DNA from: Candidatus Magasanikiibacteriota bacterium
GTDB taxonomy: Bacteria > Patescibacteriota > Patescibacteriia > Magasanikbacterales > 2-02-FULL-50-9b
Reading direction: 5' to 3'
DNA: 64,000 nt
NCBI GenBank assembly: GCA_903893485.1
Contig: CAITMK010000014.1
Coordinates: 66,144 to 130,143, forward strand
Every line of letters begins with the position of its first letter. Position 1 is the first letter of the stretch. Of the stretch, positions 4,121 to 63,216 are shown piece after piece. The notes below the pieces were generated by a model that worked only from the letters and a program-made list of their open reading frames with translations, was not told the DNA's origin and did no database searches. Both the position numbers and the translations under genes were made by a program.

Positions 4121-4122
4121 AC

Positions 4123-4823: not shown

Positions 4824-4833
4824 TTTAATCACT

Positions 4834-6363: not shown

Positions 6364-6414
6364 AGGGCGTTCTGGTATCAGAACTGCCTATAATAGCAGA
6401 GATTAGCGATTTTG

Positions 6415-16573: not shown

Positions 16574-16628
16574 AATAAAAAAAGACCCCCGAAACCAACC
16601 GCGCGTGATGCGTTGTTGGTCCGGGGAG
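16574..16628 (-). terminator. Candidate rho-independent terminator downstream of the third island lipoprotein
   Basis: Imperfect GC-rich hairpin (CCCCGGACCAAC…GTTGGTTTCGGGG) followed on the minus strand by a T run of at least 8. Confidence 0.45.
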
Positions 16629-16679
16629 TCGGTTGTGGTATTGGGCGCCGGTCGGCGATGCAATACGAGGGGGTGACCG

Positions 16680-18032
16680 CTAGAAGAAGCGATCGAGGAT
16701 GCGGTAGGCGTCGCACGTAAGTGTGCCGAACATCGCCGTCTTGCCCGTACCGGCCGGCAACGTACCGTTGCTGATCGTGTACTGGTTCGGGACGATGTAG
16801 TCGACCGTCGTCACGTTGTTCGGGCCCGTGGTAAGGACCTGAAACGCGTGATTCGTGCCGACTTTCTTGGTTGCCGACGTGCAGCTTGAGCCGATGTAGC
16901 CGGGCGAGAAGTCGCCGGCCGCCCACTTGATGTAGAAGCCCGCGCCGTTCGCGCTGCTGTTCACCTTGCTGCACCACTTGTTGCTCACGCCGACCTGGGT
17001 CATGTTGAGCGAGTCGCCGTCCAAGGACCAGATGCCGCCGTACACGAACTCGCCGTTCACGGAAACGATCTGATCATCGGCCTGCACGCACACTTTGTAC
17101 TGGCCGCCGCTTTGCGCCGGCGTTCCGGTGTGCGAACACGTGATCTTGCTGGTGTCCGTGGTGGGCGTGGTCGTGCCGGTGCACTGGTCGAGCGTCGCGG
17201 CGTTGGCGTCATCGCAGAGGAAATCCGCGCTGACGGTGGGGTCAGTGGTCGGCGCGCAGCCGATCTGAATCCCGTTTTGCCACTGGCACATGCCTTTCAG
17301 CATGGCCTGCTTCTGGACGCCTTTCGCGCTGCAGTAGTACGTCGGCGAACCGTCGCACAAGCTGGGATCCGAGCAAGCGAACACGCCATTCAGCGCGTTG
17401 CACGCGCCGGTGAGCGAGTTGCAGACCTGGCCCGCCGGGCAGCTGTTTTGCGTGCAGCTTTGCGGCGCCGTGTTGGGAGTGTTGGTGCACTTGAAGGTGT
17501 TCCAATCCCCCGTGCACGAATCAGTCGTGCTCGGATCGTTGTCGCTGCAGCTGTAGGGCTGCGACGGCTGATTCGAGTCGTACTCGCAGTACTGCCCCGC
17601 GCCCGTGCCGAAGCACATGCCCGTGAAAAAGTACTGCGTGGCCACGCCGGCATCACAATGACGCGACGTCAGCTGACAGGTGACCCCGTCGCAGACGTGC
17701 GCCACTTTGTTGGGATCCACCTGCGGCACCGAGCACACGCCCGTGTCGCAAATCTGGTTCCCGGTGCACGTGCCGCACGAGCCGCCGCAGCCATCGCTGC
17801 CGCAGTCGTGCGTGCCGCACTTGGGCGTGCACGCGTCGGCCGAAGCCGTCGCGTCCGTGCCGTTGCTGGTGTCCGAGTTGCTCGCATCCGCCGCCGCGCA
17901 GCTGGCGCAGTCCGTGGACAAACCCACAATGGGCTGGTCGGCAGGCTGGTCGACCGGGATGGCGCAGCCGGTGAAACCGGTGGCGCAGACCAACGCACAC
18001 GCGATGGCCAGAAACTTCTTGACGTTCAACAT
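16680..18032 (-). CDS. Secreted Cys-rich lipoprotein (CGxxDCGxDGCGGSCGTC motif) with a C-terminal beta-rich lectin-like domain
   Basis: Start MLNVKKFLAIACALVCATGFTGC (lipobox FTGC). Many Cys in the N-terminal two thirds. C-terminal roughly 170 aa is Gly/Ser/Asn-rich and predicted beta-rich. Confidence 0.75.
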   Translation of the reverse strand: MLNVKKFLAIACALVCATGFTGCAIPVDQPADQPIVGLSTDCASCAAADASNSDTSNGTDATASADACTPKCGTHDCGSDGCGGSCGTCTGNQICDTGVCSVPQVDPNKVAHVCDGVTCQLTSRHCDAGVATQYFFTGMCFGTGAGQYCEYDSNQPSQPYSCSDNDPSTTDSCTGDWNTFKCTNTPNTAPQSCTQNSCPAGQVCNSLTGACNALNGVFACSDPSLCDGSPTYYCSAKGVQKQAMLKGMCQWQNGIQIGCAPTTDPTVSADFLCDDANAATLDQCTGTTTPTTDTSKITCSHTGTPAQSGGQYKVCVQADDQIVSVNGEFVYGGIWSLDGDSLNMTQVGVSNKWCSKVNSSANGAGFYIKWAAGDFSPGYIGSSCTSATKKVGTNHAFQVLTTGPNNVTTVDYIVPNQYTISNGTLPAGTGKTAMFGTLTCDAYRILDRFF

Positions 18033-18283
18033 GACAGACTCCTCAAGCAATAAGGCCGATTAGGCCGTGGGTGAAAAACAAACTGACACTGGAAAGGAAC
18101 GCAGAACTTCTGTGCGACGAATTACGTCGTAAACAAAAGCACTGAGTTCGCCTGACAAGCTGCGTGTTATGAAGGAGGGAGCATAACAGCTACTCGTCAG
18201 ACGAACTCAGCGCTCATGGCTTTTGTTGTCCGGGATGCTATTATCAGATGCTTTATATTAGTTGTCAAGAAACGTCCTGTGGA

Positions 18284-18340
18284 AAAAAATCTCCGGGGTG
18301 GTCGACAAGCGTTATTGCTTGCCGACCACCCCTTCGTTGT
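18284..18340 (-). terminator. Rho-independent terminator after the OMP gene
   Basis: Perfect 10-bp stem GGGGTGGTCG / CGACCACCCC followed on the minus strand by GGAGATTTTTTT. Confidence 0.5.
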
Positions 18341-18363
18341 TGCTCTTGCCGCCGGTTAGGTGA

Positions 18364-19335
18364 CTAGAAGCCGTACTGGATCCCGAACGTGACGCCGAGC
18401 ACCGGATCGAACTTGACGCCGTGGTCCAGGTTGCCCCGGAGGTCAAACGCGAAATTCGACTTGCCCATGAAAATCTCCGCACCCAGCGCCCCGCCGAACC
18501 GGTTTTCCGTCACATTGTGACTGAACCCGTTTTCAGCGATGCTGACCGCGTGGAAGCCGGCGTAGATCGCAAATTCGCGATGAAAATCGATCTTGGCCGC
18601 TGCCAGGTAATCGATCTCCGCGTGATTGTCGCCGCCGAAGGCCATGCGCACATCGAACTTGCCGTCCAGCCACTGGTGGCCGAACGATTCGATGCCGAGG
18701 CCAAAGCCACCGATGCCCGTCTGGTTCACGCCGCCGAAACCGGCGAGGATGAACTTCCACGAGGACGGCACGTTGGCGATCGGATTGACCCGGGGCGCCT
18801 GCGGCACGTACTGCTGCGGTTGCGGCTGCGGCGTGACCAGTTCCTTCCGGAGCTGCTTGAGCCCCGTCCACGCCGCCTGGGCGATGACCAAAGCCTCGCG
18901 AGCTTCGGACGCCGTCTGCAGCGTGTTGACCAGGATGCCGGCCTGCCGCGCCCGCATCAGCCGCAACGCGACGTCGTCGTCGTGATACTTGATCACTTCG
19001 ACGATGCGCGTGGCGGACACCACGCAACGGGGGTTGCGGAGCTGATCGTGAATCTTCTCGAGGGCGCTCACGCGCACGACGAGAGACGTGATCAGCTGCT
19101 GCGACAACCCGTTCGCACTCGCCTGCCCAGCCATCTGCTGGATCGTGGCGTTGCGCTCGGTCTTGGCCATGTCGGTCAACGTATCGACCGCTTTCGCCGC
19201 CTCCGCCCGCATCTCCGGAGAGAGCGGGCGATCGTCCGGCGCAGCGGGCGCCAAATTGACCTGCTGCGCAAACGCAGCCGGGGCCGAGACACAGAACATC
19301 AAGGTCGCCATCGCGACCGTCATCAACTTCTTCAT
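18364..19335 (-). CDS. Outer-membrane beta-barrel protein (signal peptide, C-terminal …GIQYGF)
   Basis: Cleavable signal (…SAPAAFAQQ). C-terminal about 150 aa show alternating hydrophobic beta-strand pattern ending in an aromatic-x-F terminus typical of BAM substrates. Confidence 0.65.
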   Translation of the reverse strand: MKKLMTVAMATLMFCVSAPAAFAQQVNLAPAAPDDRPLSPEMRAEAAKAVDTLTDMAKTERNATIQQMAGQASANGLSQQLITSLVVRVSALEKIHDQLRNPRCVVSATRIVEVIKYHDDDVALRLMRARQAGILVNTLQTASEAREALVIAQAAWTGLKQLRKELVTPQPQPQQYVPQAPRVNPIANVPSSWKFILAGFGGVNQTGIGGFGLGIESFGHQWLDGKFDVRMAFGGDNHAEIDYLAAAKIDFHREFAIYAGFHAVSIAENGFSHNVTENRFGGALGAEIFMGKSNFAFDLRGNLDHGVKFDPVLGVTFGIQYGF

Positions 19336-19588
19336 GACGAACTCCTACACAGTAAAGTGACCGCGAGGGCCACGAAAGAAACTACCAGTGAAAAGGGCGC
19401 GTGCTAAGTATCCGATCGGACACCTACCACTTCTGCTTTTGAGAGCATATCTGTACTGCCTAAAGCAACACGGACATGATCTTAAAATAATCGTCCTGGG
19501 GAGCGAAATCGTGGATTCGGCGGTTGCCTTATCACACTTCTTCGCTCCCCAAGGAGTTTGCGCCCCAGTCACTTAGGGGCATTTGGCG

Positions 19589-20275
19589 CTACGGCTGCCG
19601 CAGGAAGCCGTTCGCGCGCGCCTCGCCGTCGGCCCGCGCGCTCGCATACGCCTGATTCAGCGTGCGCAGCTCGCGGCACTGTGCCGGCGTCGGGTGCGGC
19701 TCGCCGTAGATCTGGCAGTCGCCGTCGCTCCGGGCAGCGCCGCGCTTGTCTTCGGACTTCGTGTGCGCTTTCGGGGCGGCGGGCTCGATCTTGATGACCT
19801 CGCCGTCGTCCTTCTTGTCGCCCGCGTCGTCGGACTTCACGTGTGCCTTGGCCTTGGCTTTCGCCTTGGCCGCCCACTCGCCCTTCCAGTTCTCCGTCGC
19901 GCCCTTGGTGGCGTCGTGGAGGCCCTTGGCGCCCAGGCAGTCCTGGTACGCAGCGCCGCACTTCGCGTTGGCCGCGTTGGCGAGTTCTTGCGCGCGCGCC
20001 TGGCAGATCTTGCCGCTCTCGCCGCAGTTGATGAACTCATGCGCCAAGATGTGCGCGACGAGATTCTTGCAGCTCGTCTGCACCTCCTCGCACGTCGAGG
20101 CCGTCGTCGGCGCCGGCACCGCAACCACCGCCGGCTTCGGCGGATCGTCGGTCGGCACTTTCACCGGGTCGACCTGCTTGGGGCAGTCCTTGCCGCAGGT
20201 CACCGTGGTGGTGCCGCACGCAGCAGCCGTCATCGCGACCAAAACCAGAACGCCAGAAACAAAAAGCTTCTTCAT
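19589..20275 (-). CDS. Secreted lipoprotein, hypothetical
   Basis: Signal plus lipobox (LVAMTAAAC). Cys pairs in the N-terminal half and a Lys/Ala/Asp-rich C-terminal half. GC-rich. Confidence 0.6.
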   Translation of the reverse strand: MKKLFVSGVLVLVAMTAAACGTTTVTCGKDCPKQVDPVKVPTDDPPKPAVVAVPAPTTASTCEEVQTSCKNLVAHILAHEFINCGESGKICQARAQELANAANAKCGAAYQDCLGAKGLHDATKGATENWKGEWAAKAKAKAKAHVKSDDAGDKKDDGEVIKIEPAAPKAHTKSEDKRGAARSDGDCQIYGEPHPTPAQCRELRTLNQAYASARADGEARANGFLRQP

Positions 20276-20545
20276 TGCTTGTGCCTCCCCAATCGGTTAC
20301 TACCGTGGGATCAGTTGACCTTCCAACAATACGAACACCCCAGTGGTGACGCACGTTGTCCAGCCAAATTCAGAAAACAAACTATTCTACCAACTAATTG
20401 TACGGAACTGGAACTGTTGCCCCACGAGATAGGCTTGTGGCCGTCTCAATGTGACTTAATACAATATCACACTTTCCTGGAAAAGTCAAGGGGGTGGGGG
20501 CCATTTAGACCCTCACCCCCAAGAAATGCAAAAAATTATTAAAAA

Positions 20546-27355: not shown

Positions 27356-27755
27356 GGGGATGACAGGCTTCGAGAAGAAAAAGAAGGCTCTAACGGGCGT
27401 GTCGGGAATGTACTGCTTCTCGCAAAACGCAGTACAAATCCAAGTGCAAACATCTTTGCACGTGCAAAAGCGACGATTGCTAACGCATTCGCTCCAACTT
27501 TTGTACCAGCATTCGCTTAATTGCCAATGCCATCGAACCAGACGTTCACGGTCCGGTATTCGGTGTTATTAAACAGTGAAGTAGAAACTCCGAGCGCTGC
27601 AAGTCGCGCGTAGTTCCGAAATCAATACTTGTCTTGTGCATTGGCTTGTTTGTCCAATTGATGGCCGCGCATAAGTAAAAATTAACTGGACTACACACGT
27701 AGGCCGCGAGTATCCTTTTTCTTTGACCCGGGTTCAATTCCCGGCATCTCCACCA
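27356..27755 (+). ncRNA. ssrA: tmRNA (transfer-messenger RNA)
   Basis: 5' GGGGATGACAGGCTTCGAG pairs with 3' CATCTCC-A-CCA to form an acceptor stem with a G3-U70 wobble (alanine identity). T-arm CCGGG-TTCAATT-CCCGG. Internal tag ORF …GCT AAC GCA TTC GCT CCA ACT TTT GTA CCA GCA TTC GCT TAA. About 400 nt. smpB lies 2.7 kb upstream. Confidence 0.85.
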
Positions 27756-35685: not shown

Positions 35686-35718
35686 AAAAAATCCCCGCTT
35701 CGCGCGGGGATTTTTTAT
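35686..35718. terminator. Bidirectional rho-independent terminator between convergent genes
   Basis: AAAAAATCCCCGC-TTCG-GCGGGGATTTTTT, with A and T runs on both sides. Confidence 0.5.
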
Positions 35719-36521
35719 TTCTTCAAATTAATTGCTTCGATGCACATGAACAACGGAATTTCCAAACGCGCTTTATTTTCCGCGCCAGCACGTGGACCAC
35801 TTGTTGCAGGACGATGTGATACCCATTCTTCGAGTCGCGTCACTGCAAAACCAGCCTTGCCCAAATGTTTAAAATATAATTGCAATGGACGATGAAACGA
35901 AACCGTTTGCACCGACGGATCGCTGCCCGGATGCATATCAATTTGATTTTTGCGTTCCGTTAAATACGCGTCAACGCGGCGATACTGCACATGTTTTTTT
36001 TCATCCCATTCCCAACTCGAAAATTTTGGCACGCGAAATGTGGGATGATTTAATACAAATAAAATTCTGCCGCCCGGCGCAAGCACGCGTGCTGCCTCGG
36101 CCATAACTGGCGAGACACGTTCGATATTTTGCAACGCCAATACAATTGTCACCACATCAACTGAGTTATCCGGCACAAATGAACAATCGTCCGCGGGCGA
36201 TACATGATATACAATTTCAGGCACAGAATTTTTCTTTGCAATTGCAATTAATTCTGGCGCGATATCTGATGCAATAATCTGCGCACCAGCGGCCGCAAAT
36301 CGGCGCGAAAAATATCCTTGCCCGCATGCTAAATCTAAAATTTTCATTCCTGGTTTTGGCGCGACCAATCGTTCCAAGTTTGGTGCCAATACTTTTTCCT
36401 GAAAGGTATCTGGATTATTTTCTAAAAGTTCATCGTACCAAGGCGCAACCGCACCCCACGATGTCGATTTTTCGTGCGCCGGTTTTTTTACCACTTTGCG
36501 CGGATTAAATGCTGGTCTCAT
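35715..36521 (-). CDS. Class I SAM-dependent methyltransferase
   Basis: Motif [30 protein letters not shown] and downstream Rossmann-fold pattern. Confidence 0.75.
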
Positions 36522-37456
36522 ACGACTTTTTTAAAATACGCAATTGTTTTAACCAAGCCTTCGTCAACCATCACCTTTGGTTCCCATCCCAGCATTTTTT
36601 TAGCAACCGAAATATCTGGCTTGCGACGTTTTGGATCATCACCCGGCAACGCGCGAAATGTAATCGCTGATTTTGAACTCGTCAGCTTCACCACTTTTTC
36701 CGCAAGCTGTTTCATGGTGAATTCATTTGGATTGCCCATATTCACCGGCCCTGTAACGCGCGCCTTTTCCATAAACAACATCATGCCGCGCACCAAATCA
36801 TCAACGTATTGAAAGCTGCGCGTTTGATCGCCCGCACCATAAATGGTAATTGGCGCGCCGCGAAGCGCTTGCACGATAAAATTCGAAACCACGCGACCGT
36901 CATTCACGGCCATGCGTGGGCCATAGGTATTAAAAATTCGCACCACGCGAATCTCAACTTTTTTTTCGCGATGATAATCAAAACATAATGTTTCTGCGGC
37001 GCGTTTGCCTTCATCGTAACATGCGCGAATGCCAATTGGATTTACATTTCCCCAATACGTTTCGCGTTGTGGATGTTCAAGTGGATCACCATAAATTTCT
37101 GACGTGCTTGCCTGCAATACGCGCGCACCAGTTTTTTGTGCCAACTTTAACATGTTATGCATTCCTAAAAAACTCGTTTCAATGGTTGCCACCGGATCTT
37201 TTTGATAATTCACAGGCGACGCCGGACATGCCAAATTATAAATGCGTGTAAATTTTATTTTTGTAACAAATGGTTCACGCACATCGTGTTTAATGAAAGT
37301 AAAATTTTTATTTTTCAAACACGTTACAATATTTTTTTTACTTCCACAAAATAAATTATCAACGCACACGACGGTGTGGCCCGCGGTGAGCAGCGCCTCG
37401 CACAAATGCGAACCGATAAATCCCGCACCACCAGTTACTAAAATTGTTTGTTTCAT
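36518..37456 (-). CDS. UDP-glucuronate decarboxylase (UDP-xylose synthase), NAD-dependent epimerase/dehydratase family
   Basis: [99 protein letters not shown]. Near-collinear with UXS enzymes. Confidence 0.85.
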
Positions 37457-40842: not shown

Positions 40843-40919
40843 GGACTGGTAGCTCAGCTGGTTAGAGCGTCCGCCTGTCACGCGGAAGGTCGAGGGTCCG
40901 AGTCCCTTCCAGTCCGCCA
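40843..40919 (+). tRNA. tRNA-Asp (GTC)
   Basis: Acceptor GGACTGG/CCAGTCC, anticodon loop CTGTCAC, T-arm GAGGG-TCCGAGT-CCCTT, encoded CCA. 77 nt. Confidence 0.9.
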
Positions 40920-44791: not shown

Positions 44792-44820
44792 AAAAAATCC
44801 ACCCTTCCGAGTGGATTTTT
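44792..44820. terminator. Bidirectional terminator between convergent genes
   Basis: AAAAAATCCAC…GTGGATTTTT hairpin with A and T runs on both sides, 20 nt past the stop of the giant minus-strand gene. Confidence 0.55.
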
Positions 44821-44839: not shown

Positions 44840-47800
44840 TCACTTCTTGGTAGCGTTTATGACTTTTCGAGTATAGTCATAGAAGTTCCTAGTTCCTTTT
44901 TTCAATTTCAGTGGCTTCAAAATAAGCGCTGCGTTTGCTTCCTGAAATTTCGTGATCGCTTTAGCAGTTGCCTGACTAAAACGCGTCGTCTCATTTCCTG
45001 GCGACCCAGGACCAGACTTTGCCACAACAAATCCATTTGTGTTCAAGAATTTTTGCAGCTCTTTTACATCAGCACCTGTTGCACCAATTTTCAGATTACG
45101 CGTAAATACATACGTATTTTTTATTGATTGAGCTTCAGAAACCGCGGTTTTGTCGAGTAACGATTTTACATCAAGCACCGCATTATTCTGCTTTAAATCA
45201 GTAAGTGCAATCGAAATGTCTGGGATTTTATCGTTATCAAGGTCAACTGAAACCAACTTCGCAAGTTTGAGTGTAAAAATTTGCGGAGTAGATTCAACAC
45301 GAATTGTTACCGTACCAGCTGCATAATCGATTGACACAATCGTAATGTGATGCGTTTGATCTGTGTATGTCTGACTCACGGGCGCGATAACCGTAGTCTG
45401 TACGCTCGCCGCGCCAGCTACAACTGCCGGAGGTGCGCCCGCCGCATCAACATGAACTAATGATTGCGTTTCGCCCGCCGCAACAGGGGCTGCAGGAGGA
45501 GGAGTTACTGATTGGACTGGCGGCTGAACTGGCGGAAGAGTCGTCGCTGGTGTTTGTACCGGAGTATCAGAATGTGAATCATTAGAATGCTCAGCCGGAG
45601 TTGGAGTTGGGCTTGGAGTACTAATTGCATTCCCACTGCCCCCACTACTGCTACCGCCGCCACCAACCTGACAAGGATTAGTTGTAACCGTTTGATCTCC
45701 ACTATAAACCGTACCTCCCAAATAAGTTGCGCGAGCACGATAATGATAAAGCGTATTACACTGAAGCCCTGTTAATGTCGTCGAAAACGAATTAGAGGAA
45801 AATCCATCTTCTTTTGTTTCATTTGTAGTCATTCCGTAACTATCCGTTAAACCATAGTCAAAACCGCGAGCCGTTGCGAGCGAATCATCAAGAGGATTGA
45901 AATTACCCACAACAACCACGTAACCATTCCAAACGCCGGGAGAACTCGATGCGGTAACGGTCGCGCTAAGCGAATTCGTAATTACCAGTTGCAGCAAATC
46001 AGTATTAAGGGAATGATGAATGCCTTGCGGCGCATTCACATACGTACCCCAATTAATTGCACGAGTATTATAAGTGCTCTGATATGCATTATGATCCGCA
46101 TCAGTTGGATAATTTTCAGTTTCTGTGTGATACGGATATTGCGTCATCTCGTTAAACGGTAATGGCGCTATCGTATCACCCGTTGGGTTGTGATATGACT
46201 TGTGGAAATCCCATGTTTTGTACAAGAAGTCTCGGGTTGTGCCTGGTGCTTGTACTGGCACATGATATTTGAGTGCTAATTCGTCACCCTGCGTTGCAAT
46301 AACAAATTTGTTATCAACATCCGTCACCAATGGCAACACATCACCATAACGCGTTGCATTTCCCGAAACCGGATTACCACCACCAACTGTTTTTGCGAGG
46401 CGGTCGTACACCGGCTGTGAAATTTGCATAAGCGGATCTTCAGGATCAGCACTTGTTAGTTCTGAAACACCGCGAAAATGCAAATCGGCATAATATGGCG
46501 CAAGGTTTGTTACCGTAACTGCCTGATCAGGACTCGTATCAACCGCCATCCAATTAATTACCCAGCGAAGCAAATTATTTGATGACCAAATACGAATTTC
46601 GTTGTCCTTGATATTCAGGCCAGACAAATCAATAACCTTTGTATCCATGCCATACGTGTTGGAATAGTTACGCGTACTTGTTGCCGTTCCGATACGCGTA
46701 CTATTAAACGGATCGTATTGCGCAGGAACATTCACAAAGACACCGCTTGAGTTTTTGTACTGTAATTTGTCTGAGCCGGTCCCACCACTTTGCGGACCTT
46801 CTTTGCCGCGTTTAATGACTAATTTCAAATGCGCTGGTGTTGATGTTGCATTTGATAATTTAATCGTTACATACGTTGGAATTTCTGTTTTTGAACTATG
46901 CCACGACAAATGATCATCATTTGCAATAAGCGATGTCACATCGATTCCATCTTGGTCTACAACTCTTACTGGCGCAGGAGCAGTCTTACTAATCGTATGA
47001 ATCTGTCGGTTGTTTCGATAATCTGGAAATACATCAACACTCGGATCATGATCAATTACCTGCAGTGCGGCCTGATCATAGTAGTTGACTTCATTCAACT
47101 CGAACGAAGTTTTGACATCATAATATGTTTCATCGCCTATAGTACGAGGTATGAGTTCACCGTGCGGAATTTTTACGTATGATTCAGGATTTGGAAATGC
47201 CATGGCCTTATAAAACGGCGTCGCTTTCCATTGATTTAAGTCACCACCAGAACCAAGCGTCGATGCACTCGAGGCATCAATGATGAAATTATATTTTGAC
47301 CCGTCATATGTCCACACAAACGGACATGAAGATGACAAGCCGTAGAGCATGCTATATTCATCGCTTGTGGTAATATTTCCTTCAGCATTAATTGAACGTA
47401 CACGATAATACCAACGAGAGCCCGATGTATCCTCGAACGTTGCACCAGCGTCCGCAGAGGCCCAGATATCCCCACCCCATGCGCCGATCAGTAATGTGCT
47501 ACCATCAGACGATGCAGCGGTCGACATCCAACATCCACTCAGCGTTGAATGCAATACCCATGTGACACCACCATCAGTTGAGGTATACATATTACCACAA
47601 TCCACACCCACGATAATTTTTTGGCCATCCGCAGAAACTGAAACGGTTTGCCAACCTGAATACCCAGGACCCGATTGCGCGATCCATGTAGCCCCGCCAT
47701 CGGTAGAAATATTTACAGTGTTAATATTCGAACCTACGGTAACCAATACATTTCCAGTTGCATCTGACGAAATAGCTTGCCAGTTTCCATAGCCCGATGC

Positions 47801-50668
47801 ATTGCCTTGCGTTGACCAATCCGTACCACCATTTGAGGTTGTGTAGACATATCCATTGTCCATGGTAGCAGCGACCTTATTTCCAGCAGCATTCATAGCG
47901 ATGCCTGTCCAATACTGTGTACCTGCGTTATCCTGACGCGTCCATACCCACGCACCATCTGTTTTGGTAGCAAGCCATATATAGCCGTAATCAGAGGCCG
48001 CAGCAATTTTTGTGCCATCACTATTCATTGTGATGCCCTGCCATCCAGCCGTACCTGGATCGGTTTGCTGCGTCCATACCCATGAGCCATCAATCAAATC
48101 CCCAGTCCAAATTGAGCTATTTGTTGCAGCAGCTACCACGTGATCGCCAGCGGTATCTTCGGCAACCGCACGCCAACAATTGCTGCCAGGATCATTTTGT
48201 AGTGTCCATGTCCACACACCATCGGTCTTAACACCAAGATACAAACTGTTACACCAATTTGCAGCAATTGCACGGTCACCTGCACCGTCAACTGCTAATC
48301 CATACCACAGCTTTCCGTTTGTATTATTCAGCGCTGGAGTAAGTGCATGCTGAGTTTCCATGTTGCTATCTGCAAGATGGTTTGCGTAATCATCCCAACT
48401 CGCATGCGAGATTGTGTCATACGCAATCATACTTGTTGATGAAGCATCGGTTGTCCACTGAATTGGAAGCAAGCCGCCATTTGCACCAACATTGGTAATC
48501 GTTACCGGACTGAAACTACTATCCGCCTGCGCTAATACCCACGAAGCTCCATCACCATCCTTGTACTGCGTGCCAGTCTTGTCTCCCGATAGCGTACAAT
48601 CCGTACCGCAATGCGCGGATCCAAGATGTTCCCACGCTGATGACAAAAAATTCCAAATCGAAATTGAAACTTGCTTGCCGTCTGGCACCGCACCATGACC
48701 CTGCCAATTAACCGTAAACTTTGGCTGGGTAATTCCCGTAAAATCCGTCGTAAATTTAAATACCTGAGAATCGAAACCGTTATCAATCTGAGAAAGTGCC
48801 GTGGTTAAATACGAACCATCGTGTGCGAGAATTGGATCGAATGAGCCAAACGCACTTCCTGGTTCTTCCGGTGTGGTACTCGCATTTGCGCTTTCATACG
48901 CAGCCACTGCGTTTGAGGTTATATTTGTTGGCGCATACGAAAAATTTAGAATTGCACTACCGTTATTTTCATAATATTCAACTGTAATAGTATGATCGCC
49001 CGCAGATAATGTTTCAACTTGAGTATCTGGACTCCATGGCGCATCACCACGATTTTGCCAACCATCCATTATGAGTGCCCCGTCAAGATACACTTTTGCA
49101 CCGTCATCGCTATCATCCTGAAACAAATAATCACCCGCATCAAAATGCGTCGTCTTACTAAATCGAGCAAGAAAGCCGTCGTTATTAATACCATTGCCCG
49201 GCGAACCATTTGCCCAATTAAATGCAATCACACGAGAGTTTGCGATATATGTCGGTGCAGTGGTTGGAAACTGAGGTCTGCTTGATGCGCCAGTTGGCAC
49301 ATTCCAATATTCAGCCAAATAGGAATCAGAATTCCCCCTCTCAAGTGGCCATAGATACGCAACATATGAATCATCAACGCCGCTAAAATAATAAATTTGA
49401 TCAACAGACGAAAAATATGTTTCCCCATCTAGATAACCGGGTTTTGTAAAATTAAATGCGATATTTGATCCATCAGAGCAGGAAGCAGCGTCGGGCGGCA
49501 TACCCACAACTTGCCCGTTTACATCCGTGGTGCCAAACTCTGTCCACGAACCATTGCAAAGCACTTTTACGTCCGCGCCGGAAATTGGTGTGCTGGTTGA
49601 GCTCAGCAAATTAAATTGCACATGGCCAAGCGCTGGACCGGAATTGTTTGCGTTCCATGTGGCGCCAGCATCGGAAGAGTTATAAAAATCGCCATATCTT
49701 TTCGCCGCAAGCCACATGTCACCATTTGTGTTAACCGCAACCGCGCCCCAATCAGCTGAGCCAGATGCATTATCATGGCTCGACCACGTTGCTCCACCAT
49801 TTTCTGATGTATACACATAACCACTATCGCCGGTCGAGAATCCATCGACAATATATTTATTTCCAGCGGAATTCACCGCAACAGAATTCCAATAGTGTGC
49901 CCCCAGATCAGTCATCGGTGTCCAATTCTGCCCCGCATCAGACGAAAGAAAAACATAGCCATATCCATACTCATCAGCTATCAAATTATTTCCACTCGCA
50001 TCAGATGCGATATTTTCCCAATTATGCGTGGTGTTCGTACCACTATTATTTGTCCAGGTGGCGCCATAATCTAATGAGGTATACACGTATCCATTATTTT
50101 GGTCAGTGGCAAATAATTTATCACCGAGGGCGTTTGAAGCAACTGAATACCAATAATGAATACCTACGGTCTTACGATCAGTCCATGTAGCACCATAGTC
50201 TGTCGAGGTCCATAAATCGCCAAGATTTTCTGACACAATAAGTTTGTCGCCCGCAGCATTTGAGGCGATCATATGTGCATTATGCGATCCTGTTATTGTT
50301 TGTCTTGTCCAGGTAAGGCCCGAGTCCGCGGAGACAAATACATGCCCTGATCCCTGTTCCAAAGCTGCAAAATGTGTGCCATCCCCAGATGATGCAATTG
50401 AAATCCAGCATCGATAACCCGCATTCGTACGTGCGGTCCATGTCGCACCACTATCGGTCGAGGTATAAAGATATCCACACCATGAACCCGCAATTACTTT
50501 AGTTCCGTCTGCTGAAGCCGCAAAGGTATTCCAGCTGTATGCTGCACCCGATGCAAGTACACGAGGGGTGTGCGAAAATAAAAAAACTGTAATTGCGAGC
50601 GCACATACTCCAATTACAGAAACCGCACAGAATAAAATTTTTTGTTTAAGGGTTTGCGGATGGGACAT
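44840..50668 (-). CDS. Giant cell-surface protein (1942 aa): N-terminal anchor, Asp-box (BNR) beta-propeller repeats, PA14-like domain, more Asp-box repeats, FN3-like domain, Pro/Thr-rich linker, C-terminal peptidoglycan-binding (PG_binding_1-like) domain
   Basis: At least 11 Asp-box motifs (YTSTDSGATWT, FVSADSGLTWT, WTSTDYGATWT, YTSLDYGATWT, YTTSNGGTDWS, YTSTDGGVTWV…). PA14-like segment (DAGDYLFQDDSDDGAKVYLDGALIMDGW…GDHTITVEYYENNGSAILNFSY). Linker TPSPTPTPAE…PPVQPPVQSVTPPPAAP. C-terminal LKIGATGADVKELQKFLNTNGF…TRFSQATAKAITKFQEANAL. Confidence 0.85.
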   Translation of the reverse strand: MSHPQTLKQKILFCAVSVIGVCALAITVFLFSHTPRVLASGAAYSWNTFAASADGTKVIAGSWCGYLYTSTDSGATWTARTNAGYRCWISIASSGDGTHFAALEQGSGHVFVSADSGLTWTRQTITGSHNAHMIASNAAGDKLIVSENLGDLWTSTDYGATWTDRKTVGIHYWYSVASNALGDKLFATDQNNGYVYTSLDYGATWTNNSGTNTTHNWENIASDASGNNLIADEYGYGYVFLSSDAGQNWTPMTDLGAHYWNSVAVNSAGNKYIVDGFSTGDSGYVYTSENGGATWSSHDNASGSADWGAVAVNTNGDMWLAAKRYGDFYNSSDAGATWNANNSGPALGHVQFNLLSSTSTPISGADVKVLCNGSWTEFGTTDVNGQVVGMPPDAASCSDGSNIAFNFTKPGYLDGETYFSSVDQIYYFSGVDDSYVAYLWPLERGNSDSYLAEYWNVPTGASSRPQFPTTAPTYIANSRVIAFNWANGSPGNGINNDGFLARFSKTTHFDAGDYLFQDDSDDGAKVYLDGALIMDGWQNRGDAPWSPDTQVETLSAGDHTITVEYYENNGSAILNFSYAPTNITSNAVAAYESANASTTPEEPGSAFGSFDPILAHDGSYLTTALSQIDNGFDSQVFKFTTDFTGITQPKFTVNWQGHGAVPDGKQVSISIWNFLSSAWEHLGSAHCGTDCTLSGDKTGTQYKDGDGASWVLAQADSSFSPVTITNVGANGGLLPIQWTTDASSTSMIAYDTISHASWDDYANHLADSNMETQHALTPALNNTNGKLWYGLAVDGAGDRAIAANWCNSLYLGVKTDGVWTWTLQNDPGSNCWRAVAEDTAGDHVVAAATNSSIWTGDLIDGSWVWTQQTDPGTAGWQGITMNSDGTKIAAASDYGYIWLATKTDGAWVWTRQDNAGTQYWTGIAMNAAGNKVAATMDNGYVYTTSNGGTDWSTQGNASGYGNWQAISSDATGNVLVTVGSNINTVNISTDGGATWIAQSGPGYSGWQTVSVSADGQKIIVGVDCGNMYTSTDGGVTWVLHSTLSGCWMSTAASSDGSTLLIGAWGGDIWASADAGATFEDTSGSRWYYRVRSINAEGNITTSDEYSMLYGLSSSCPFVWTYDGSKYNFIIDASSASTLGSGGDLNQWKATPFYKAMAFPNPESYVKIPHGELIPRTIGDETYYDVKTSFELNEVNYYDQAALQVIDHDPSVDVFPDYRNNRQIHTISKTAPAPVRVVDQDGIDVTSLIANDDHLSWHSSKTEIPTYVTIKLSNATSTPAHLKLVIKRGKEGPQSGGTGSDKLQYKNSSGVFVNVPAQYDPFNSTRIGTATSTRNYSNTYGMDTKVIDLSGLNIKDNEIRIWSSNNLLRWVINWMAVDTSPDQAVTVTNLAPYYADLHFRGVSELTSADPEDPLMQISQPVYDRLAKTVGGGNPVSGNATRYGDVLPLVTDVDNKFVIATQGDELALKYHVPVQAPGTTRDFLYKTWDFHKSYHNPTGDTIAPLPFNEMTQYPYHTETENYPTDADHNAYQSTYNTRAINWGTYVNAPQGIHHSLNTDLLQLVITNSLSATVTASSSPGVWNGYVVVVGNFNPLDDSLATARGFDYGLTDSYGMTTNETKEDGFSSNSFSTTLTGLQCNTLYHYRARATYLGGTVYSGDQTVTTNPCQVGGGGSSSGGSGNAISTPSPTPTPAEHSNDSHSDTPVQTPATTLPPVQPPVQSVTPPPAAPVAAGETQSLVHVDAAGAPPAVVAGAASVQTTVIAPVSQTYTDQTHHITIVSIDYAAGTVTIRVESTPQIFTLKLAKLVSVDLDNDKIPDISIALTDLKQNNAVLDVKSLLDKTAVSEAQSIKNTYVFTRNLKIGATGADVKELQKFLNTNGFVVAKSGPGSPGNETTRFSQATAKAITKFQEANAALILKPLKLKKGTRNFYDYTRKVINATKK

Positions 50669-50782
50669 AGGATAGGTACGAAGTAAAACTTAATTGCCAA
50701 TTATTATATCAAAAAAAATGCTCGTCGCCTATGACGAGCGCAAAACTCTTAATAAAAAGAAGATCTAAAATTTGCAACAGCT

Positions 50783-51079
50783 CTATTTAATCAAAAATTT
50801 CTTGCCATACAAAGACATCGCGTCAATGATTTTAGCTAATTTAGAGCCTTGTTTTGTAATACGATAAAATGAGTCTTTTTTTAAAAGAATACCTTCTGCT
50901 TCCAAATTCTTAAGTTTGCTCGTTAACGTGCGTGTACTGATACCGGACAACGAAGATTCGAGCTCAGTAAAACGCATTTTGCCGCGTAGCAAGTCGCGAA
51001 TAATAAGCATGGTCCACCGATCGGACAATAAACTGGCAACACGCGCCACGGGACATTCTGATGGTTCATGAGATGACAT
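50783..51079 (-). CDS. HxlR-family winged-helix transcriptional regulator
   Basis: CPVARVASLLSDRWTMLIIRDLLRGKMRFTELESSLSGISTRTLTSKLKNLEAEGIL matches the HxlR/DUF24 pattern. Confidence 0.75.
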   Translation of the reverse strand: MSSHEPSECPVARVASLLSDRWTMLIIRDLLRGKMRFTELESSLSGISTRTLTSKLKNLEAEGILLKKDSFYRITKQGSKLAKIIDAMSLYGKKFLIK

Positions 51080-54271: not shown

Positions 54272-55870
54272 TTGTACCTTAAAAATATGCAGGGATTCAA
54301 TAGAATCTTGGGAAGCGCCACGACACTTTTATTCGTGTTAAGCTTTGCAGGACCCACAACCTTATTCGCCGCAAATCCACCACCACTCGGATATTCGATT
54401 ACCTATGGTATTCTTGCGAACACTTATACCAACACCACACTTGGAACAACAGTGGCTGGCGATATTGGTTACACAACTGCTCCAGCAATTGTGGCGGCTG
54501 GCGTTCACAACAATCTTGGCTCCGAAGCGCCGTATGCTGCGGCTGGAGCAGATCAAGGCACTGCATTAGCAAATTTAAATTCACAACCCTGTACTTTCAC
54601 TTTTGCACCAGGAGCAATTGATCTTTCAACAGATACAACTCACGGAACAATTGCCACATATGGCCCGGGTGTATATTGCAGTACCGGCGCAATGGATGTT
54701 GGCGGCCCTATTTCACTTAACGGCGCTGGCACCTATATTTTTAGACCAAGCGGCGCACTTACTTCAACAACCGGTTCTGTAATTTCATTATCTGGCGCGT
54801 CTGCTTGTAATGTATTTTGGACACCAGGAGGCGCAACATCATTGGCAACAAATACTACTTTTGTTGGTACTGATATTGATGTCGCTGGCATAACCGTTGG
54901 ATCAACTGTAACTTGGGTTGGCCAAGCATTAGCATTTGGAGGAACCATTAGCACTGACGCAGATACCATCAGCGTTCCAAACTGTACAGTTGTACCAAAA
55001 GCACCGATCGTTGGACAAGGTGGAGGTTACACAACACCAACCGCAGCCGTTGTACCACCACTTATTCATATTACAAAAATTCCAGACCCACTTTTATTAA
55101 CCGCTGGACCTGGATTAGTAACATACAATTACACGGTAACCAATGTTGGTCTTGTGCCAATGAGTAATATTACCGTCATCGACAATAAATGCAGCGCGGT
55201 TACCCTGTTATCTGGCGATTCAAATCTTGATTCAAAACTTGATGTTGGAGAAATTTGGAAATATCGTTGTGCCATGACGCTTTCCGAAACAACAACGAAT
55301 ACAGTTACCGCAACGGGGCAAGCAAGCGGTCTAACTGCAACCGATATCGCAGAATCAACGGTTGCTGTGAGCGCACCACTTCCTCCACCACTTATTGACC
55401 TTATCAAAATTCCAGACCCACTGGTACTTCCATCGACTGGTGGTGTAGTAAAATATACCTACACCGTTACCAATCCTGGCGTCACACCACTTAGCAACGT
55501 TTCGGTGGTTGATGATAAATGTATTCCCGTAAGCGGACCAAGTGGTGACACAAACAATAATAATTTGTTAGACATGAACGAGACGTGGACATATACGTGC
55601 AGCTCAGTGTTACACGAAACCACCGCTAACGTCGGCACTGCTACCGGGAGCGCCAATGGTATGTCAGCTCAGCATTCTTCAATTGCGCTCGTTGTTGTAA
55701 ATGCACCCGCACTAACAATAAAAACGCCAACCTCAACAGTTCCAAAATTACCAAACACGGGTGTTAACCAAAACAATAATTTCTTGCAAATTTGTTTTGG
55801 CCTTGTGGGATTATTTGCACTTTTAGCAGCGTTCTTTAAAGGCAAAGAAATTCTTGCATCGCGCCGCTAA
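54272..55870 (+). CDS. LPXTG-anchored surface protein: N-terminal ice-binding-like (DUF3494) domain plus two DUF11/CARDB-like repeats
   Basis: Signal peptide. LGYSITYGILANTYTNTTLGTTVAGDIGYTTAPA… resembles the DUF3494 N-terminus. Two roughly 100-aa repeats (IPDPL…YxYTVTNxG…). C-terminal LPNTG plus hydrophobic stretch plus KGKEILASRR. Confidence 0.75.
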   Translation: MYLKNMQGFNRILGSATTLLFVLSFAGPTTLFAANPPPLGYSITYGILANTYTNTTLGTTVAGDIGYTTAPAIVAAGVHNNLGSEAPYAAAGADQGTALANLNSQPCTFTFAPGAIDLSTDTTHGTIATYGPGVYCSTGAMDVGGPISLNGAGTYIFRPSGALTSTTGSVISLSGASACNVFWTPGGATSLATNTTFVGTDIDVAGITVGSTVTWVGQALAFGGTISTDADTISVPNCTVVPKAPIVGQGGGYTTPTAAVVPPLIHITKIPDPLLLTAGPGLVTYNYTVTNVGLVPMSNITVIDNKCSAVTLLSGDSNLDSKLDVGEIWKYRCAMTLSETTTNTVTATGQASGLTATDIAESTVAVSAPLPPPLIDLIKIPDPLVLPSTGGVVKYTYTVTNPGVTPLSNVSVVDDKCIPVSGPSGDTNNNNLLDMNETWTYTCSSVLHETTANVGTATGSANGMSAQHSSIALVVVNAPALTIKTPTSTVPKLPNTGVNQNNNFLQICFGLVGLFALLAAFFKGKEILASRR

Positions 55871-59814: not shown

Positions 59815-59944
59815 CAATATTCTCGGGGTTTGGTCAAAAGCCGAGCTCCGAGGATTTATTTTTTTAAGCCACAAAGACCTCTTGCGTAATTAGAAATAAT
59901 TTGATACAATTTGGCGGTAAAATTGAATAGGCGTGGAGAGGTGG

Positions 59945-60034
59945 CCGAGTGGTTTAAGGCAACGGTCTTGAAAACCGTCATAGGTGAAAGCTTATCGAGA
60001 GTTCGAATCTCTCCCTCTCCGCCAGGACAATTTC
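59945..60034 (+). tRNA. tRNA-Ser (TGA)
   Basis: Acceptor GGAGAGG/CCTCTCC, anticodon loop CTTGAAA, long variable arm, T-arm GAGTTCGAATCTC, encoded CCA. 90 nt. Confidence 0.9.
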
Positions 60035-60195: not shown

Positions 60196-63100
60196 TTACG
60201 CCCCAAGCGTATCCAAAGGCTTCCGTGGTGCTGAACGCAGATGCCGTGCCTGAGCACGAAGCACCTCGAGTTTCAAATTATCATCTGAAATAATATCTCC
60301 TCGAATTGTCGTGAATTTACCAGGCTCGCCCGCAAACTCCTTGCTTGCCATTTTTGCAAACGCCTCCACCATATCTTCGGGAGGTTTGTTACCCTGATTC
60401 AGGTATTTCTTTGAAAGAATAAAAACTCGATGAGTATTCGTACCAAGTTTTTTAAACATTTTCTTTGCTCGCTGAAGATCTTCTTTTGTGTCTATGATAA
60501 CCGCGCCTTCTGGTAATCCAAGCTTTTTTTCGCGAGAATCATCATTTGGCGGACCACTTTCACCCCCTTTCGGTGGGCGTGGCTCTGATGATGGAGTTTC
60601 CATTGCACCACGCGCCCATTCAGGTGTTACCAAAATCGGATCAATCCAGCCCGCGCCCGCGCCATTCAGATTTTTTACAACTGTTGTTGTATCTTCAATC
60701 GCGTGAATAATCGCGCCACCCGGACCATGACCAACACCTGTTGCAAGCGTATCATATCCTGCGGTACCACCACGTCGAAACACCGCTTCTGCAGCAAATT
60801 TAAGTTTACCGGCTTTGTTAATTAAAATATCGTGCAATGGATCTGACTTATCGATGACTAATTCTCCATGCTCATCTAATGGGATATCTACGCCCATAAC
60901 ATGCACCTTGAAGTTGCTTGCAACATCTTTTAGATTGCCGCCTCTTACCGCAGCGCGCAAATCTGCAAATTTATTATCATGCGTTCCGTCCGTATTTTTT
61001 GCACCATGCTTCATCATTTGTTGAAGCATTTTCTTCATAGAAAGCACGGTTTTACCAACACGATGTCTCAATTCAAGCTGCTGCTCCTTACCATCAAATT
61101 TAAACGTTTCATTGTTATGGTAATCGGCTCGAGCTCCTGGCGCATGTCCAAAACGATTTTCCATGTATGCTTTTATGCCCGCGTTATTCAGATGATGTGT
61201 AACAACTGCGTGATCCACAACTGTTTGAACCGCGTCTACTTTTACAATGCCGGCGTGAACAAGCGCTGCGTGCAATGCGCCCACATCATGACCCTGAAAA
61301 ACTTTGGAAAGCGGAAGACCCCAATTGTCAACAAGCATCCCCATCCCCTTATCGTTTGTTATAAACTGAACGTGATCTGGGAGCTGCACATGCGATCCAT
61401 CTGGAAGAGTAATGTTGTGAATTTGAGAAGTTATTTCGCTGCCACCCAAAAATGTTTTCACAATATGTTCTGACCCACTGTGAATCCAGTTTGAAAGAGA
61501 ATTCATTGAGCCACTGAGTCCATCATTATACAAACTACTGCCGGCATTAATCACCGAGCGCATCAGCACACCACCCGCGATACCAATAACAGAGCCGCCA
61601 ACAACTGCCTTTACCGTTTCCCAACGTTTGAAGCTTTTAAATTCATCATCTTGTTTTGCGACAGCTGCGAGTGTACCCTCTTCCATATGTCGCATATCTT
61701 CCGCGAAGATCTCTGCATTACCCGCTTCGGCTTGAATACGTTTTAATTCCGCACGAATTTTATTAAGCGAAAAAAGTTTTGTATTTCTTGCACCTTCTTC
61801 TGCATCAACCGCAAACATATCGATATGATTTGTGCGTTCGATTTTTTCTTTTGCCATGATTTGGCTTATGTTTGTGCGCTGCTCAGGTGTTAGCCGTGCG
61901 CCATTACACGTTTGCAAATATGCAATTACTTCACCGGCCTGCATGATCTCATCTCGATATCCAAGGCTGCGAATTTTTTCGGCGCGGTCACCACCTGCAT
62001 GTTTACCCAGTGCTTCTCGGCGCATTTCAAGACCGCGATCGCGTCTTAATTCTGCTGAACGGCGTGCACCGGCAAAACCACCGCCCATAAGTGCAGCGGC
62101 TGCTACTGGCGCTCCCGCCAACAATGATGAGCCTCTGACGCCCACACCAATACCCATTCTCACAGCAAAATTGGCAAGCGCACTAGTTGCAGCACCCGCA
62201 AAAATAGGACTCGTTAACCGTCCAAGAATTGGAAGCGACTGAATACGGTTTACAACATTATCTACAAACGATTTTGATCCATCAGGAAATCGATTTGCGA
62301 TATCACGTTCCTTTCGACCAAGCTGCACATCAACTGCCATGGTGCCACGAACAAACTTTGCGATAGCTTCTTTATTTTCTGCTCCATGTTCGGCAGCAGC
62401 TTCTTGAATTGAACGCTGAATTTCTGACTTATATTCTTCTGCGTATTTAAAAAGATTTGTTGCGTACAGTGCACCCTGATCATTTGCCGCCACAGGTCCC
62501 TTCGAAAATGTGCGGCCCTTAAGATAAGTTTGCACGATACGTACATCAACTTCTCTGTCGAATTCAGCACGCGTTCGAATCTCTCCTTGTGCGTAGCGCA
62601 TCATAATCGATGCAACTTCTTGGTTGATTTGTTCATTGTTTTCAATTTTTTCGCCTTTTTCGTGTTCTTGAACAAGACCCTGATCGTACGCTTTAAATAC
62701 TTCATCTAAATACTTTTCCGAGTCACCCAAACTTCCAGGCGTAATTACAACATCACTTTTGTGGATCAAGTGCGCTTCAATGGTTGCCATCAAATTACGA
62801 TTCTGAATAATTGCGGATTTTGCTTCCTGAAAAAATTTCTCTCGCTGACCACTTCCACCCGCACGTGCCAAGAACCGCTTAAAAAAACCATTCTTTTTAG
62901 TATCATTCAAATATTCATTCTCTTTTTCTTCAGCAACACGCTGCGCAAGCTGATTCACAAGCGGCGTCACATCATTCACACCCATTTCAAATTTCATGGA
63001 TGGAAGACGAGCGGGGCGTTTTACGTCATCAGTCACCTCGTTCAAGTTTTTTACACGCATGTAATCTTCAAGCGTAAACCGCGGATCCTCTTTATATGAC

Positions 63101-63216
63101 ACATGAAGCGCGTCACGAATTCGCGCTGATAATTCCGCGTCAGTTTCGTCAGATGCAGCATCACGACCATAGGTGGCGTCGGTGATTTCAAATTTTTTGA
63201 AAGGTTCTTTTGGCAT
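60196..63216 (-). CDS. Giant hypothetical protein (1006 aa) with two internal Gly-rich TM regions separating three soluble regions
   Basis: Long uninterrupted ORF. TM/Gly-zipper segments (ILGRLTSPIFAGAATSALANFAVRMGIGVGV…AGAPVAAAALMGGGFAG and AVVGGSVIGIAGGVLM). No recognisable catalytic motif. Confidence 0.7.
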   Translation of the reverse strand: MPKEPFKKFEITDATYGRDAASDETDAELSARIRDALHVSYKEDPRFTLEDYMRVKNLNEVTDDVKRPARLPSMKFEMGVNDVTPLVNQLAQRVAEEKENEYLNDTKKNGFFKRFLARAGGSGQREKFFQEAKSAIIQNRNLMATIEAHLIHKSDVVITPGSLGDSEKYLDEVFKAYDQGLVQEHEKGEKIENNEQINQEVASIMMRYAQGEIRTRAEFDREVDVRIVQTYLKGRTFSKGPVAANDQGALYATNLFKYAEEYKSEIQRSIQEAAAEHGAENKEAIAKFVRGTMAVDVQLGRKERDIANRFPDGSKSFVDNVVNRIQSLPILGRLTSPIFAGAATSALANFAVRMGIGVGVRGSSLLAGAPVAAAALMGGGFAGARRSAELRRDRGLEMRREALGKHAGGDRAEKIRSLGYRDEIMQAGEVIAYLQTCNGARLTPEQRTNISQIMAKEKIERTNHIDMFAVDAEEGARNTKLFSLNKIRAELKRIQAEAGNAEIFAEDMRHMEEGTLAAVAKQDDEFKSFKRWETVKAVVGGSVIGIAGGVLMRSVINAGSSLYNDGLSGSMNSLSNWIHSGSEHIVKTFLGGSEITSQIHNITLPDGSHVQLPDHVQFITNDKGMGMLVDNWGLPLSKVFQGHDVGALHAALVHAGIVKVDAVQTVVDHAVVTHHLNNAGIKAYMENRFGHAPGARADYHNNETFKFDGKEQQLELRHRVGKTVLSMKKMLQQMMKHGAKNTDGTHDNKFADLRAAVRGGNLKDVASNFKVHVMGVDIPLDEHGELVIDKSDPLHDILINKAGKLKFAAEAVFRRGGTAGYDTLATGVGHGPGGAIIHAIEDTTTVVKNLNGAGAGWIDPILVTPEWARGAMETPSSEPRPPKGGESGPPNDDSREKKLGLPEGAVIIDTKEDLQRAKKMFKKLGTNTHRVFILSKKYLNQGNKPPEDMVEAFAKMASKEFAGEPGKFTTIRGDIISDDNLKLEVLRAQARHLRSAPRKPLDTLGA

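Follow-up and report, generated by a model that had tools for sequence, protein, structure and literature searches.

The stretch of DNA analysed here, hereafter the window, spans 64,000 nucleotides of a Candidatus Magasanikiibacteriota genome (GenBank assembly GCA_903893485.1, contig CAITMK010000014.1, positions 66,144 to 130,143 of the forward strand). Its longest open reading frame (ORF), located at 44840..50668 on the minus strand, begins with an ATG codon, ends with a stop codon at 44840-44842 and encodes a protein of 1942 amino acids (aa), the runner-up being an ORF of 1006 aa. An earlier reading of the letters by a model without database searches (the sequence-only reading) had correctly named this ORF as the longest of the window, and had proposed that its product is a wall-tethered adhesin that binds or cleaves glycans. 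The ORF is real and intact; collinear full-length homologues with 49-57% identity exist (P0002-P0004, and another at a Magasanikbacteria locus, L005), and an assembly or frameshift artefact is therefore not the explanation.

From the N-terminus, the protein consists of a signal peptide, a first beta-propeller, a small beta domain, a PA14 domain, a beta-sandwich designated unkA, an FN3 domain with a second propeller nested in it, a large core module, an FN3-like spacer, a linker, a small domain and a PG_binding_1 domain; unkA, the FN3 domain and the core module are together referred to as the cassette. Pfam matches were judged against curated cut-offs, with the whole protein scanned at E ≤ 1 and separate regions at E ≤ 10, and all domain coordinates given below lie on the minus strand. 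The profiles expected from the sequence-only reading, for the Asp boxes, the PA14 domain and the peptidoglycan-binding domain, all matched above their cut-offs. The core module, unkA and the nesting of a propeller in an FN3 domain had no place in that reading.

The predicted N-terminal signal peptide (aa 1-39; 50552..50668) comprises an n-region with K8 and K10 and a 21-residue hydrophobic core followed by VLA↓SG, and holds the single hydrophobic segment of the whole protein. A small-x-small site is found in all four homologues (VLA↓S, VSA↓A, TRA↓S and ALA↓A), and its conservation in a region that is otherwise divergent, at 17-35% identity, suggests removal of the signal peptide by cleavage. 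The small beta domain (aa 351-447; 49328..49618) is immunoglobulin-like by position, carries the conserved Cys pair C371/C397 and is conserved in P0002-P0004, P0124 and P0125, and the Pfam scan of this region returned nothing useful at E ≤ 10. The PA14 domain (aa 448-585; 48914..49327) matches profile PF07691 at aa 470-585 (E 1.7e-11; 44.5 bits versus a cut-off of 24) and the solved PA14 chains 6qdi and 6qe7 at about 1e-13; the sequence-only reading had recognized its PA14 character but took it for an insert, whereas it is a free-standing domain.

At the other end of the protein, the FN3-like spacer (aa 1565-1692; 45593..45976) falls in a gap of the three closest homologues in alignment A1 and resembles the tandem repeat modules of the giant BNR proteins P0005-P0009. 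An FN3-like module had been proposed at this position (aa ~1565-1692), and the profile matches that bear on it are weak (fn3 E 0.065 at aa 1611-1649; Pur_ac_phosph_N E 0.0016 when scanned alone). The low-complexity linker that follows (aa 1693-1765; 45374..45592) aligns poorly with homologues and, although previously described as Pro/Thr, is really rich in Ala, Thr, Val and Pro. It leads into a small conserved domain of unassigned fold (aa 1766-1855; 45104..45373), 72% identical to that of P0002 and likewise preceding PG_binding_1 in P0133, P0028 and P0029. The PG_binding_1 domain itself (aa 1856-1942; 44843..45103) matches PF01471 at aa 1864-1912 with 28.4 bits in the full-length scan and 32.1 bits in a scan limited to the C-terminus (cut-off 23), in keeping with the terminus assigned from the sequence, and is also C-terminal in most close cassette-bearing relatives. 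Six conserved or local Cys pairs (64/87, 371/397, 687/691, 806/831, 1024/1046 and 1637/1666), of the type usual in extracellular proteins, argue that this is one, with C1115 the sole unpaired Cys of the mature protein. The protein contains neither an LPXTG motif nor a second transmembrane segment. A sortase-anchored LPXTG adhesin was rejected; the C-terminus is a PG_binding_1 domain and the hydrophobic segment is N-terminal.

At the centre of the protein lies the core module (aa 1111-1540; 46049..47338), an all-beta region of ~430 residues with sharp boundaries, starting with 'S-C-P-F-L-Y-x-W-D-G', of which S-C-P is near-invariant, and ending with 'Y-N-T-R'. The module has no Pfam match at E ≤ 10, no NCBIfam match over the region in a whole-protein scan at E ≤ 1, and no sequence match in the PDB with either the single sequence or a 30-sequence profile. 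When 1.84 billion cluster representatives were searched exhaustively with HMMER, the module was nevertheless identified in 1756 proteins at E ≤ 1e-3, of which 1106 pass E ≤ 1e-10, corresponding to a minimum of 1756 clusters at the level of 50% identity. Copies of the module also stand beside beta-helix, NHL, SBBP and MAM domains, many proteins carry two copies, and the proteins are named in their sources after other domains or as hypothetical. Literature searches on the module and on propeller/PA14 surface proteins of the candidate phyla radiation (CPR) found no description. Its partner unkA (aa 586-721; 48506..48913), the first part of the cassette, contains an invariant HCxxDC motif, is modelled as a sandwich of 7-8 strands and has no Pfam match at E ≤ 10; it was found in 50 of 269 collected proteins, each time alongside the module.

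Among the proteins that share the module are those with TPR, FG-GAP and UnbV_ASPIC domains (~1100-1200 aa, CRTAC1-like), named 'TPR repeat protein' or 'CcmH/NrfG' in their sources, in which distant copies make up the last ~430 residues, a stretch without annotation (28-38% identity to aa 1111-1540, E 1e-27 to 1e-31). The module directly follows a propeller and a beta-sandwich in both. Membership of the window protein in the ASPIC/UnbV (CRTAC1-like) group was rejected, with no TPR, FG-GAP or UnbV_ASPIC domain detected in it by Pfam and the module alone in common.

An AlphaFold2 (AF2) model of the module, with a mean predicted local distance difference test (pLDDT) of 84.7 and a predicted template modelling score (pTM) of 0.86, is all-beta with three strand-rich sub-regions, and portrays the module as one compact unit. 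Foldseek searches against the PDB and BFVD returned no match to the whole module; its sub-domains match galactose-binding-like jelly rolls (probability 1.0, TM 0.5-0.6), including fucose-binding SpX-3, the lectin domain of lectinolysin, CBM32, CBM29, GH29 C-terminal domains and IFT25. In an alignment of 183 module copies with 28-36% identity overall, the near-invariant residues include S1114, P1116, E1193, D1198, D1206, H1207, D1252, R1359, G1400, T1439, D1452, D1462, R1479, K1490, the P-L-P-F of 1502-1505, M1508 and R1536, and position 1115 is occupied by Cys 160 times, by Ser 6 times and by Thr once. The window protein has Asn at aa 1372 (46553-46555) and aa 1453 (46310-46312), where 93% and 87% of these copies, respectively, have Asp; at aa 1372 Asp is retained by the three closest homologues, and at aa 1453 by P0002 alone, with Asn in P0003 and P0004. 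Two other readings were set aside: a thioester (Cys-Gln) adhesin was rejected, as no Gln is conserved in at least 75% of the 183 copies despite the near-invariant C1115, and an intein/Hint reading of 'SCP...DG' was dropped, the model consisting of beta-sandwiches with lectin-like matches.

These residues bear on whether the protein might be a wall-anchored enzyme. On that view the module would be a catalytic domain of a new type, with a host or environmental glycan or peptide as its substrate, and might work through Cys1115, His1207 and Asp together or through its numerous conserved carboxylates; the propellers, PA14, unkA and FN3 would target the substrate, as accessory modules do in multi-modular carbohydrate-active enzymes of Gram-positive bacteria. 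No region of the protein is better conserved than the module, ~25 of its polar residues are near-invariant across copies that share so little identity, Cys, Ser and Thr at position 1115 form the classical nucleophile set, and C1115 alone is unpaired in an otherwise disulfide-paired ectodomain. No catalytic family is recognized by sequence or fold, however, and while the sub-domains of the compact modelled unit could make a cleft, their sole fold matches are to non-catalytic jelly rolls of the lectin and carbohydrate-binding module type. Binding modules, FN3, core and wall anchor are laid out much as in secreted carbohydrate-active enzymes, but no recurrent partner or neighbouring gene hints at a substrate, the two near-invariant Asp positions noted above are Asn here, and the module is often duplicated in tandem within a single protein. 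Two copies per protein are commoner for binding than for catalytic modules. The lectin-like folds of the sub-domains, the frequent tandem duplication and the missing catalytic match together favour a glycan-binding role for the cassette, leaving the enzyme as a possible but rather doubtful alternative.

Both propellers are predicted to be seven-bladed BNR/Asp-box beta-propellers. Propeller 1 (aa 40-350; 49619..50551) carries the conserved Cys pair C64/C87, and propeller 2 (aa 787-1082; 47423..48310) lies inside an FN3 loop between 'LTPALNN' and 'GSRWYYRVRS'. The Asp-box motif S-x-D-x-G-x-T-W occurs 7 times in strict form and 11 times under a slightly relaxed pattern, at aa 70, 113, 155, 198, 242, 288 and 331 in a first cluster and at aa 944, 988, 1030 and 1071 in a second, which agrees with the two clusters of at least 11 boxes reported from the sequence alone. 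In 2000 shuffles, a slightly narrower relaxed pattern, which finds 10 of these boxes, matched 0.07 times on average and never more than twice. Three degenerate boxes of the 'TDGVWTW'/'TDGxWxW' type (e.g., at aa 814) occupy the first three blades of cluster 2, and the regular spacing of 42-46 residues, with blades of ~43 residues, indicates 14 blades in total, seven in each of the two propellers. Propeller 1 matches Pfam Sortilin-Vps10 (PF15902) at 41.9 bits (cut-off 33), its nearest solved sequences being sortilin and the GH74 enzyme 6p2l (E about 2e-4). For propeller 2, an AF2 model of aa 585-1114 (pLDDT 87.3) gave seven-bladed propellers as top Foldseek matches (a designed 7-blade protein, G-beta and WD40; TM 0.65-0.77), followed by GH74 domains. 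The compact blades of ~43 residues with an Asp box each are like those of non-catalytic propellers of the Sortilin/Vps10 family and of the Ycf48-type 'photosystem II stability/assembly factor-like' annotations; unlike sortilin, which has ten blades, each propeller here has seven, and the protein uses the propeller twice, once inside an FN3 loop.

Asp boxes are common to sialidases and GH74 enzymes, and the cleaving activity allowed by the sequence-only reading would have the propellers act as catalytic glycosidases, either sialidase-like or GH74-like. With respect to the former, no (F/Y)RIP or R[IL]P motif is present anywhere in the protein, no BNR_2/sialidase family matched in the Pfam scan at E ≤ 1, and no sialidase is among the best 50 Foldseek matches of propeller 2; a GH33-type sialidase was rejected, given seven blades of ~43 residues instead of six larger ones, no RIP motif and no sialidase profile. 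With respect to the latter, GH74 xyloglucanases share seven-bladed Asp-box propellers with the window protein and are the best-scoring enzyme structures of the fold search, with GH74 structures also among the sequence matches, and NCBIfam NF045728 ('F510_1955 family glycosylhydrolase') matches weakly, at 78 bits, far under its cut-off of 175. The catalytic cleft of GH74 is formed by two adjacent, tandem propellers, whereas here they are 436 residues apart, one of them nested in the FN3 domain, and relatives lack or replace them while retaining the rest; a GH74/F510_1955-type glycosylhydrolase was rejected on these grounds. The propellers are also the least conserved parts of the protein. A glycosidase activity of the propellers is thus very improbable and already largely refuted, and the propellers are best read as binding platforms and not sialidases.

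The FN3 domain that contains propeller 2 is split into N-terminal strands (aa 722-786, 'LPIQWTTD...HALTPALNN'; 48311..48505), placed by alignment A3, and C-terminal strands (aa 1083-1110, 'WYYRVRSINAEGNITTSDEYSMLY' and 'GSRWYYRVRSINAEGNITTSDEYSMLY'; 47339..47422), placed by the same alignment and by strands at 500-525 of the model, with pLDDT of 82-87. In the MAFFT alignment, a single gap of ~300 residues stands opposite propeller 2 in P0131, P0133, P0134 and P0135, in which the FN3 domain is contiguous, and the contiguous domain of P0134 passes the cut-off of PF16656 (Pur_ac_phosph_N; E 5.5e-12, 46.5 bits versus 30). When the two halves of the window protein's FN3 were spliced in silico, the resulting 95 aa had no Pfam match at E ≤ 10; the assignment of the domain is therefore made by homology to these relatives, and standard annotation misses a domain that has diverged too far for Pfam even when spliced. 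The alignment and the model show propeller 2 as inserted in a loop of a purple-acid-phosphatase-N-like FN3 domain. P0129 (aa ~640-1000) and P0132 (aa ~1200-1560) have another insertion in the same FN3 domain, composed of 'GxLYGTT..GGxxxxGT[LI]F' repeats with no Pfam match, which by eye appears one loop earlier than propeller 2. Two kinds of insertion imply that this FN3 took up large insertions at least twice, and suggest that propeller-like arrays were inserted into it repeatedly and independently.

Identity to the full-length homologues, of which only three (P0002-P0004) were available for alignment A1, is highest in the module (66-72%) and lowest in the propellers (38-47%), with PA14, unkA and FN3 at 52-82%, and in sequence the cassette of unkA, FN3 and module is the most conserved region. 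The close subfamily consists of 16 representatives with 49-70% identity over the module, nearly all of which combine unkA, FN3 and module with a C-terminal PG_binding_1 domain. The N-terminal or inserted domains vary among relatives and include BNR propellers, NHL, ELWxxDGT repeats, LamG, PA14, M26_N and a different repeat propeller; the wall anchor invariably occupies the C-terminus and the variable parts the N-terminal side. When species-representative genomes were scanned with alignment A1 as the seed, relatives turned up in eight of them, five of which are assigned to Magasanikbacteria, Saccharibacteria (two), Moranbacteria and 'Patescibacteria group', and every named close relative belongs to the Patescibacteria.

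This arrangement also bears on the orientation of the protein at the cell surface. In a reversed topology, the N-terminal hydrophobic segment would remain uncleaved as a membrane anchor and the PG_binding_1 domain would form a tip that grips the peptidoglycan of the host, bridging epibiont and host. With its 21 residues, the hydrophobic core could cross a membrane, but is followed by the cleavage-type small-x-small site in all four homologues. PG_binding_1 domains also occur in enzymes directed against foreign walls, and cultivated CPR bacteria are reported to live attached to other bacteria; in this family, however, the C-terminal linker and PG_binding_1 domain are constant and the N-terminal domains are the swapped and fastest-evolving parts, as expected for an exposed N-terminus, and the low-complexity linker beside the peptidoglycan-binding end is like wall-spanning regions. 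A reversed topology is accordingly judged improbable.

Several known systems resemble parts of this architecture. PA14-bearing RTX adhesins such as MpIBP of Marinomonas are modular glycan-binding adhesins. Bap1 and RbmC of Vibrio cholerae are further examples (PMC10102183). Like these proteins, the window protein is large and secreted, with lectin-type tips, beta-sandwich spacers towards the attachment end and no recognisable catalytic domain. It differs from them in its C-terminal PG_binding_1 anchor, in place of an outer-membrane plug or matrix binding, in having no RTX repeats, and in its 430-residue uncharacterised core, the propeller nested in FN3 and the CPR host organism. A further likeness is to the EsrA filaments of Actinomycetota, in which Ig-like domains space the propeller from the wall and the propeller has been proposed as a diversifying recognition element (PMC13622651); both are Sec-exported, hold a sequence-diverse N-terminal propeller off the wall and have no LPXTG. 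EsrA is a WD40-type sensor coupled to MoxR, vWA and kinase genes, none of which flank the present locus, and the domain families differ.

Taken together, the protein could well be a Sec-exported, non-covalently wall-tethered, multi-domain surface protein, and probably a glycan-binding adhesin with exchangeable tips, a reading held with moderate confidence from its sequence. The binding half of the adhesin initially proposed thus stays the best reading, while the cleaving half does not stand for the propellers. The signal peptide would be removed after Sec export, and the C-terminal PG_binding_1 domain would then fix the protein in the peptidoglycan of its own cell, with the Ala/Thr/Val/Pro linker, the small domain and the FN3-like spacer forming a stalk off the wall. 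The propellers and the PA14 domain would serve as exchangeable, fast-evolving tips that bind ligands, most likely glycans, and the unkA-FN3-module cassette would be a conserved working core with a constant function, which may be carbohydrate binding, perhaps Ca2+-dependent given its richness in acidic residues. The mode of action would be like that of known modular lectin-tipped adhesins. Several points weigh against this proposal: the module is without a characterised homologue, its ~25 near-invariant polar residues suit an active site at least equally well as a lectin site, the hydrophobic core could serve as a membrane anchor, the PG_binding_1 domain could grip the wall of another cell, and there is no conserved gene neighbourhood, the loci of the three homologues being mutually unrelated. 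The protein is not a sialidase, a GH74 enzyme, an LPXTG adhesin, a thioester adhesin or an ASPIC/UnbV member, since the defining features of each were looked for and are lacking.

The gene looks monocistronic, given terminator-like hairpins on both sides, as previously noted from the sequence, and a putative promoter element ahead of its ATG. Upstream, the HxlR-family gene (50783..51079, minus strand; Pfam HxlR match) ends in a hairpin at 50739..50720 (minus strand) with a 7-bp stem containing 5 GC pairs followed by T8, and just past it, 35 nucleotides before the ATG, lies an extended -10 promoter-like element, TGATATAAT (50703..50711, minus strand), which was read by eye and may act as the promoter. 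A consensus promoter scan did not pick TGATATAAT, a -35 element being absent. The second hairpin (44820..44793, minus strand) follows right after the stop codon, with a 12-bp stem and a T-rich tail. The neighbouring genes encode the HxlR regulator, a ferredoxin, a U32 peptidase and small ORFs without annotation, and give no functional hint. The P-type ATPase of the window places the genome among the Patescibacteria, the ultrasmall bacteria of the CPR: it shares 75% identity with a protein of Candidatus Magasanikbacteria, and the remaining named matches are all to Patescibacteria.

Surface-related functions are generally abundant in the window. A 532-aa protein with Ice_binding (DUF3494) and DUF7507 domains is encoded 3.6 kb from the gene (54272-55870, plus strand), and an Ice_binding and SpaA_2 protein lies ~4 kb from homologue P0002 on another contig (L001 1549-4116); the presence of Ice_binding genes near both loci, in differing orientations, may be coincidence or may reflect a loose association of surface-protein genes. 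An envelope-glycan gene cluster at 3116-9996 and 35715-37456 encodes two GT4 glycosyltransferases, a Wzy_C/O-antigen-ligase-like protein, an NAD-dependent epimerase/dehydratase and a methyltransferase. The second-largest ORF (60196-63216, minus strand; 1006 aa) encodes a charged protein rich in Ala, Gly and Glu with no Pfam match. An island of high GC content at 12000-20500 (0.58-0.63, versus ~0.44 elsewhere in the window) looks foreign to a CPR genome and may stem from horizontal transfer or chimeric assembly; two of its minus-strand ORFs encode Cys-rich, lipoprotein-like secreted proteins, one (14709-16436) matching the Dicty_CTDC repeat at 8.5e-25 and the other (16680-18050) with 8% Cys, and its plus-strand ORFs are rich in Arg, Ala and Leu and look like antisense artefacts. 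A tmRNA (27356-27755, plus strand; 125 bits), a tRNA-Asp(GTC) (40843-40919, plus strand) and a tRNA-Ser(TGA) (59935-60024, plus strand) are unrelated to the surface protein.

The sequence of this gene was already public and unannotated; what is new is its reading, namely a widespread core module, its partner domain, the nesting of a propeller in FN3 and the swapping of tips within the Patescibacteria. The analysis draws attention to a large, uncharacterised family of domains that also occurs in FG-GAP/UnbV_ASPIC proteins of other bacteria. Whole propellers in FN3 loops are of interest for the evolution of domain architecture, and such nesting matters for annotation pipelines because Pfam does not see an FN3 domain that is split. 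Should the module be merely a structural or lectin unit, the protein would be an ordinary large adhesin-like protein. More speculatively, and with less confidence than is given to the adhesin, the module and unkA could represent an unrecognised, widespread family with a specific activity, either catalysis or a covalent or metal-dependent capture of ligands through Cys1115, His1207 and the carboxylates, and in Patescibacteria could be the engine of host-attachment proteins that are re-targeted by propeller swaps, including insertions into FN3 loops. Cultivated Patescibacteria are reported to live attached to other microbes, and the molecules by which they recognize their hosts are largely unknown apart from type IV pili (PMC11623550). 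The relevance to host attachment that the sequence-only reading had tied to an epibiotic lifestyle is plausible by analogy with these cultivated members. A constant wall anchor and core with exchangeable tips is the pattern expected of a determinant of host specificity, making this family of proteins, with its interchangeable propeller and lectin tips, a concrete candidate for host recognition.

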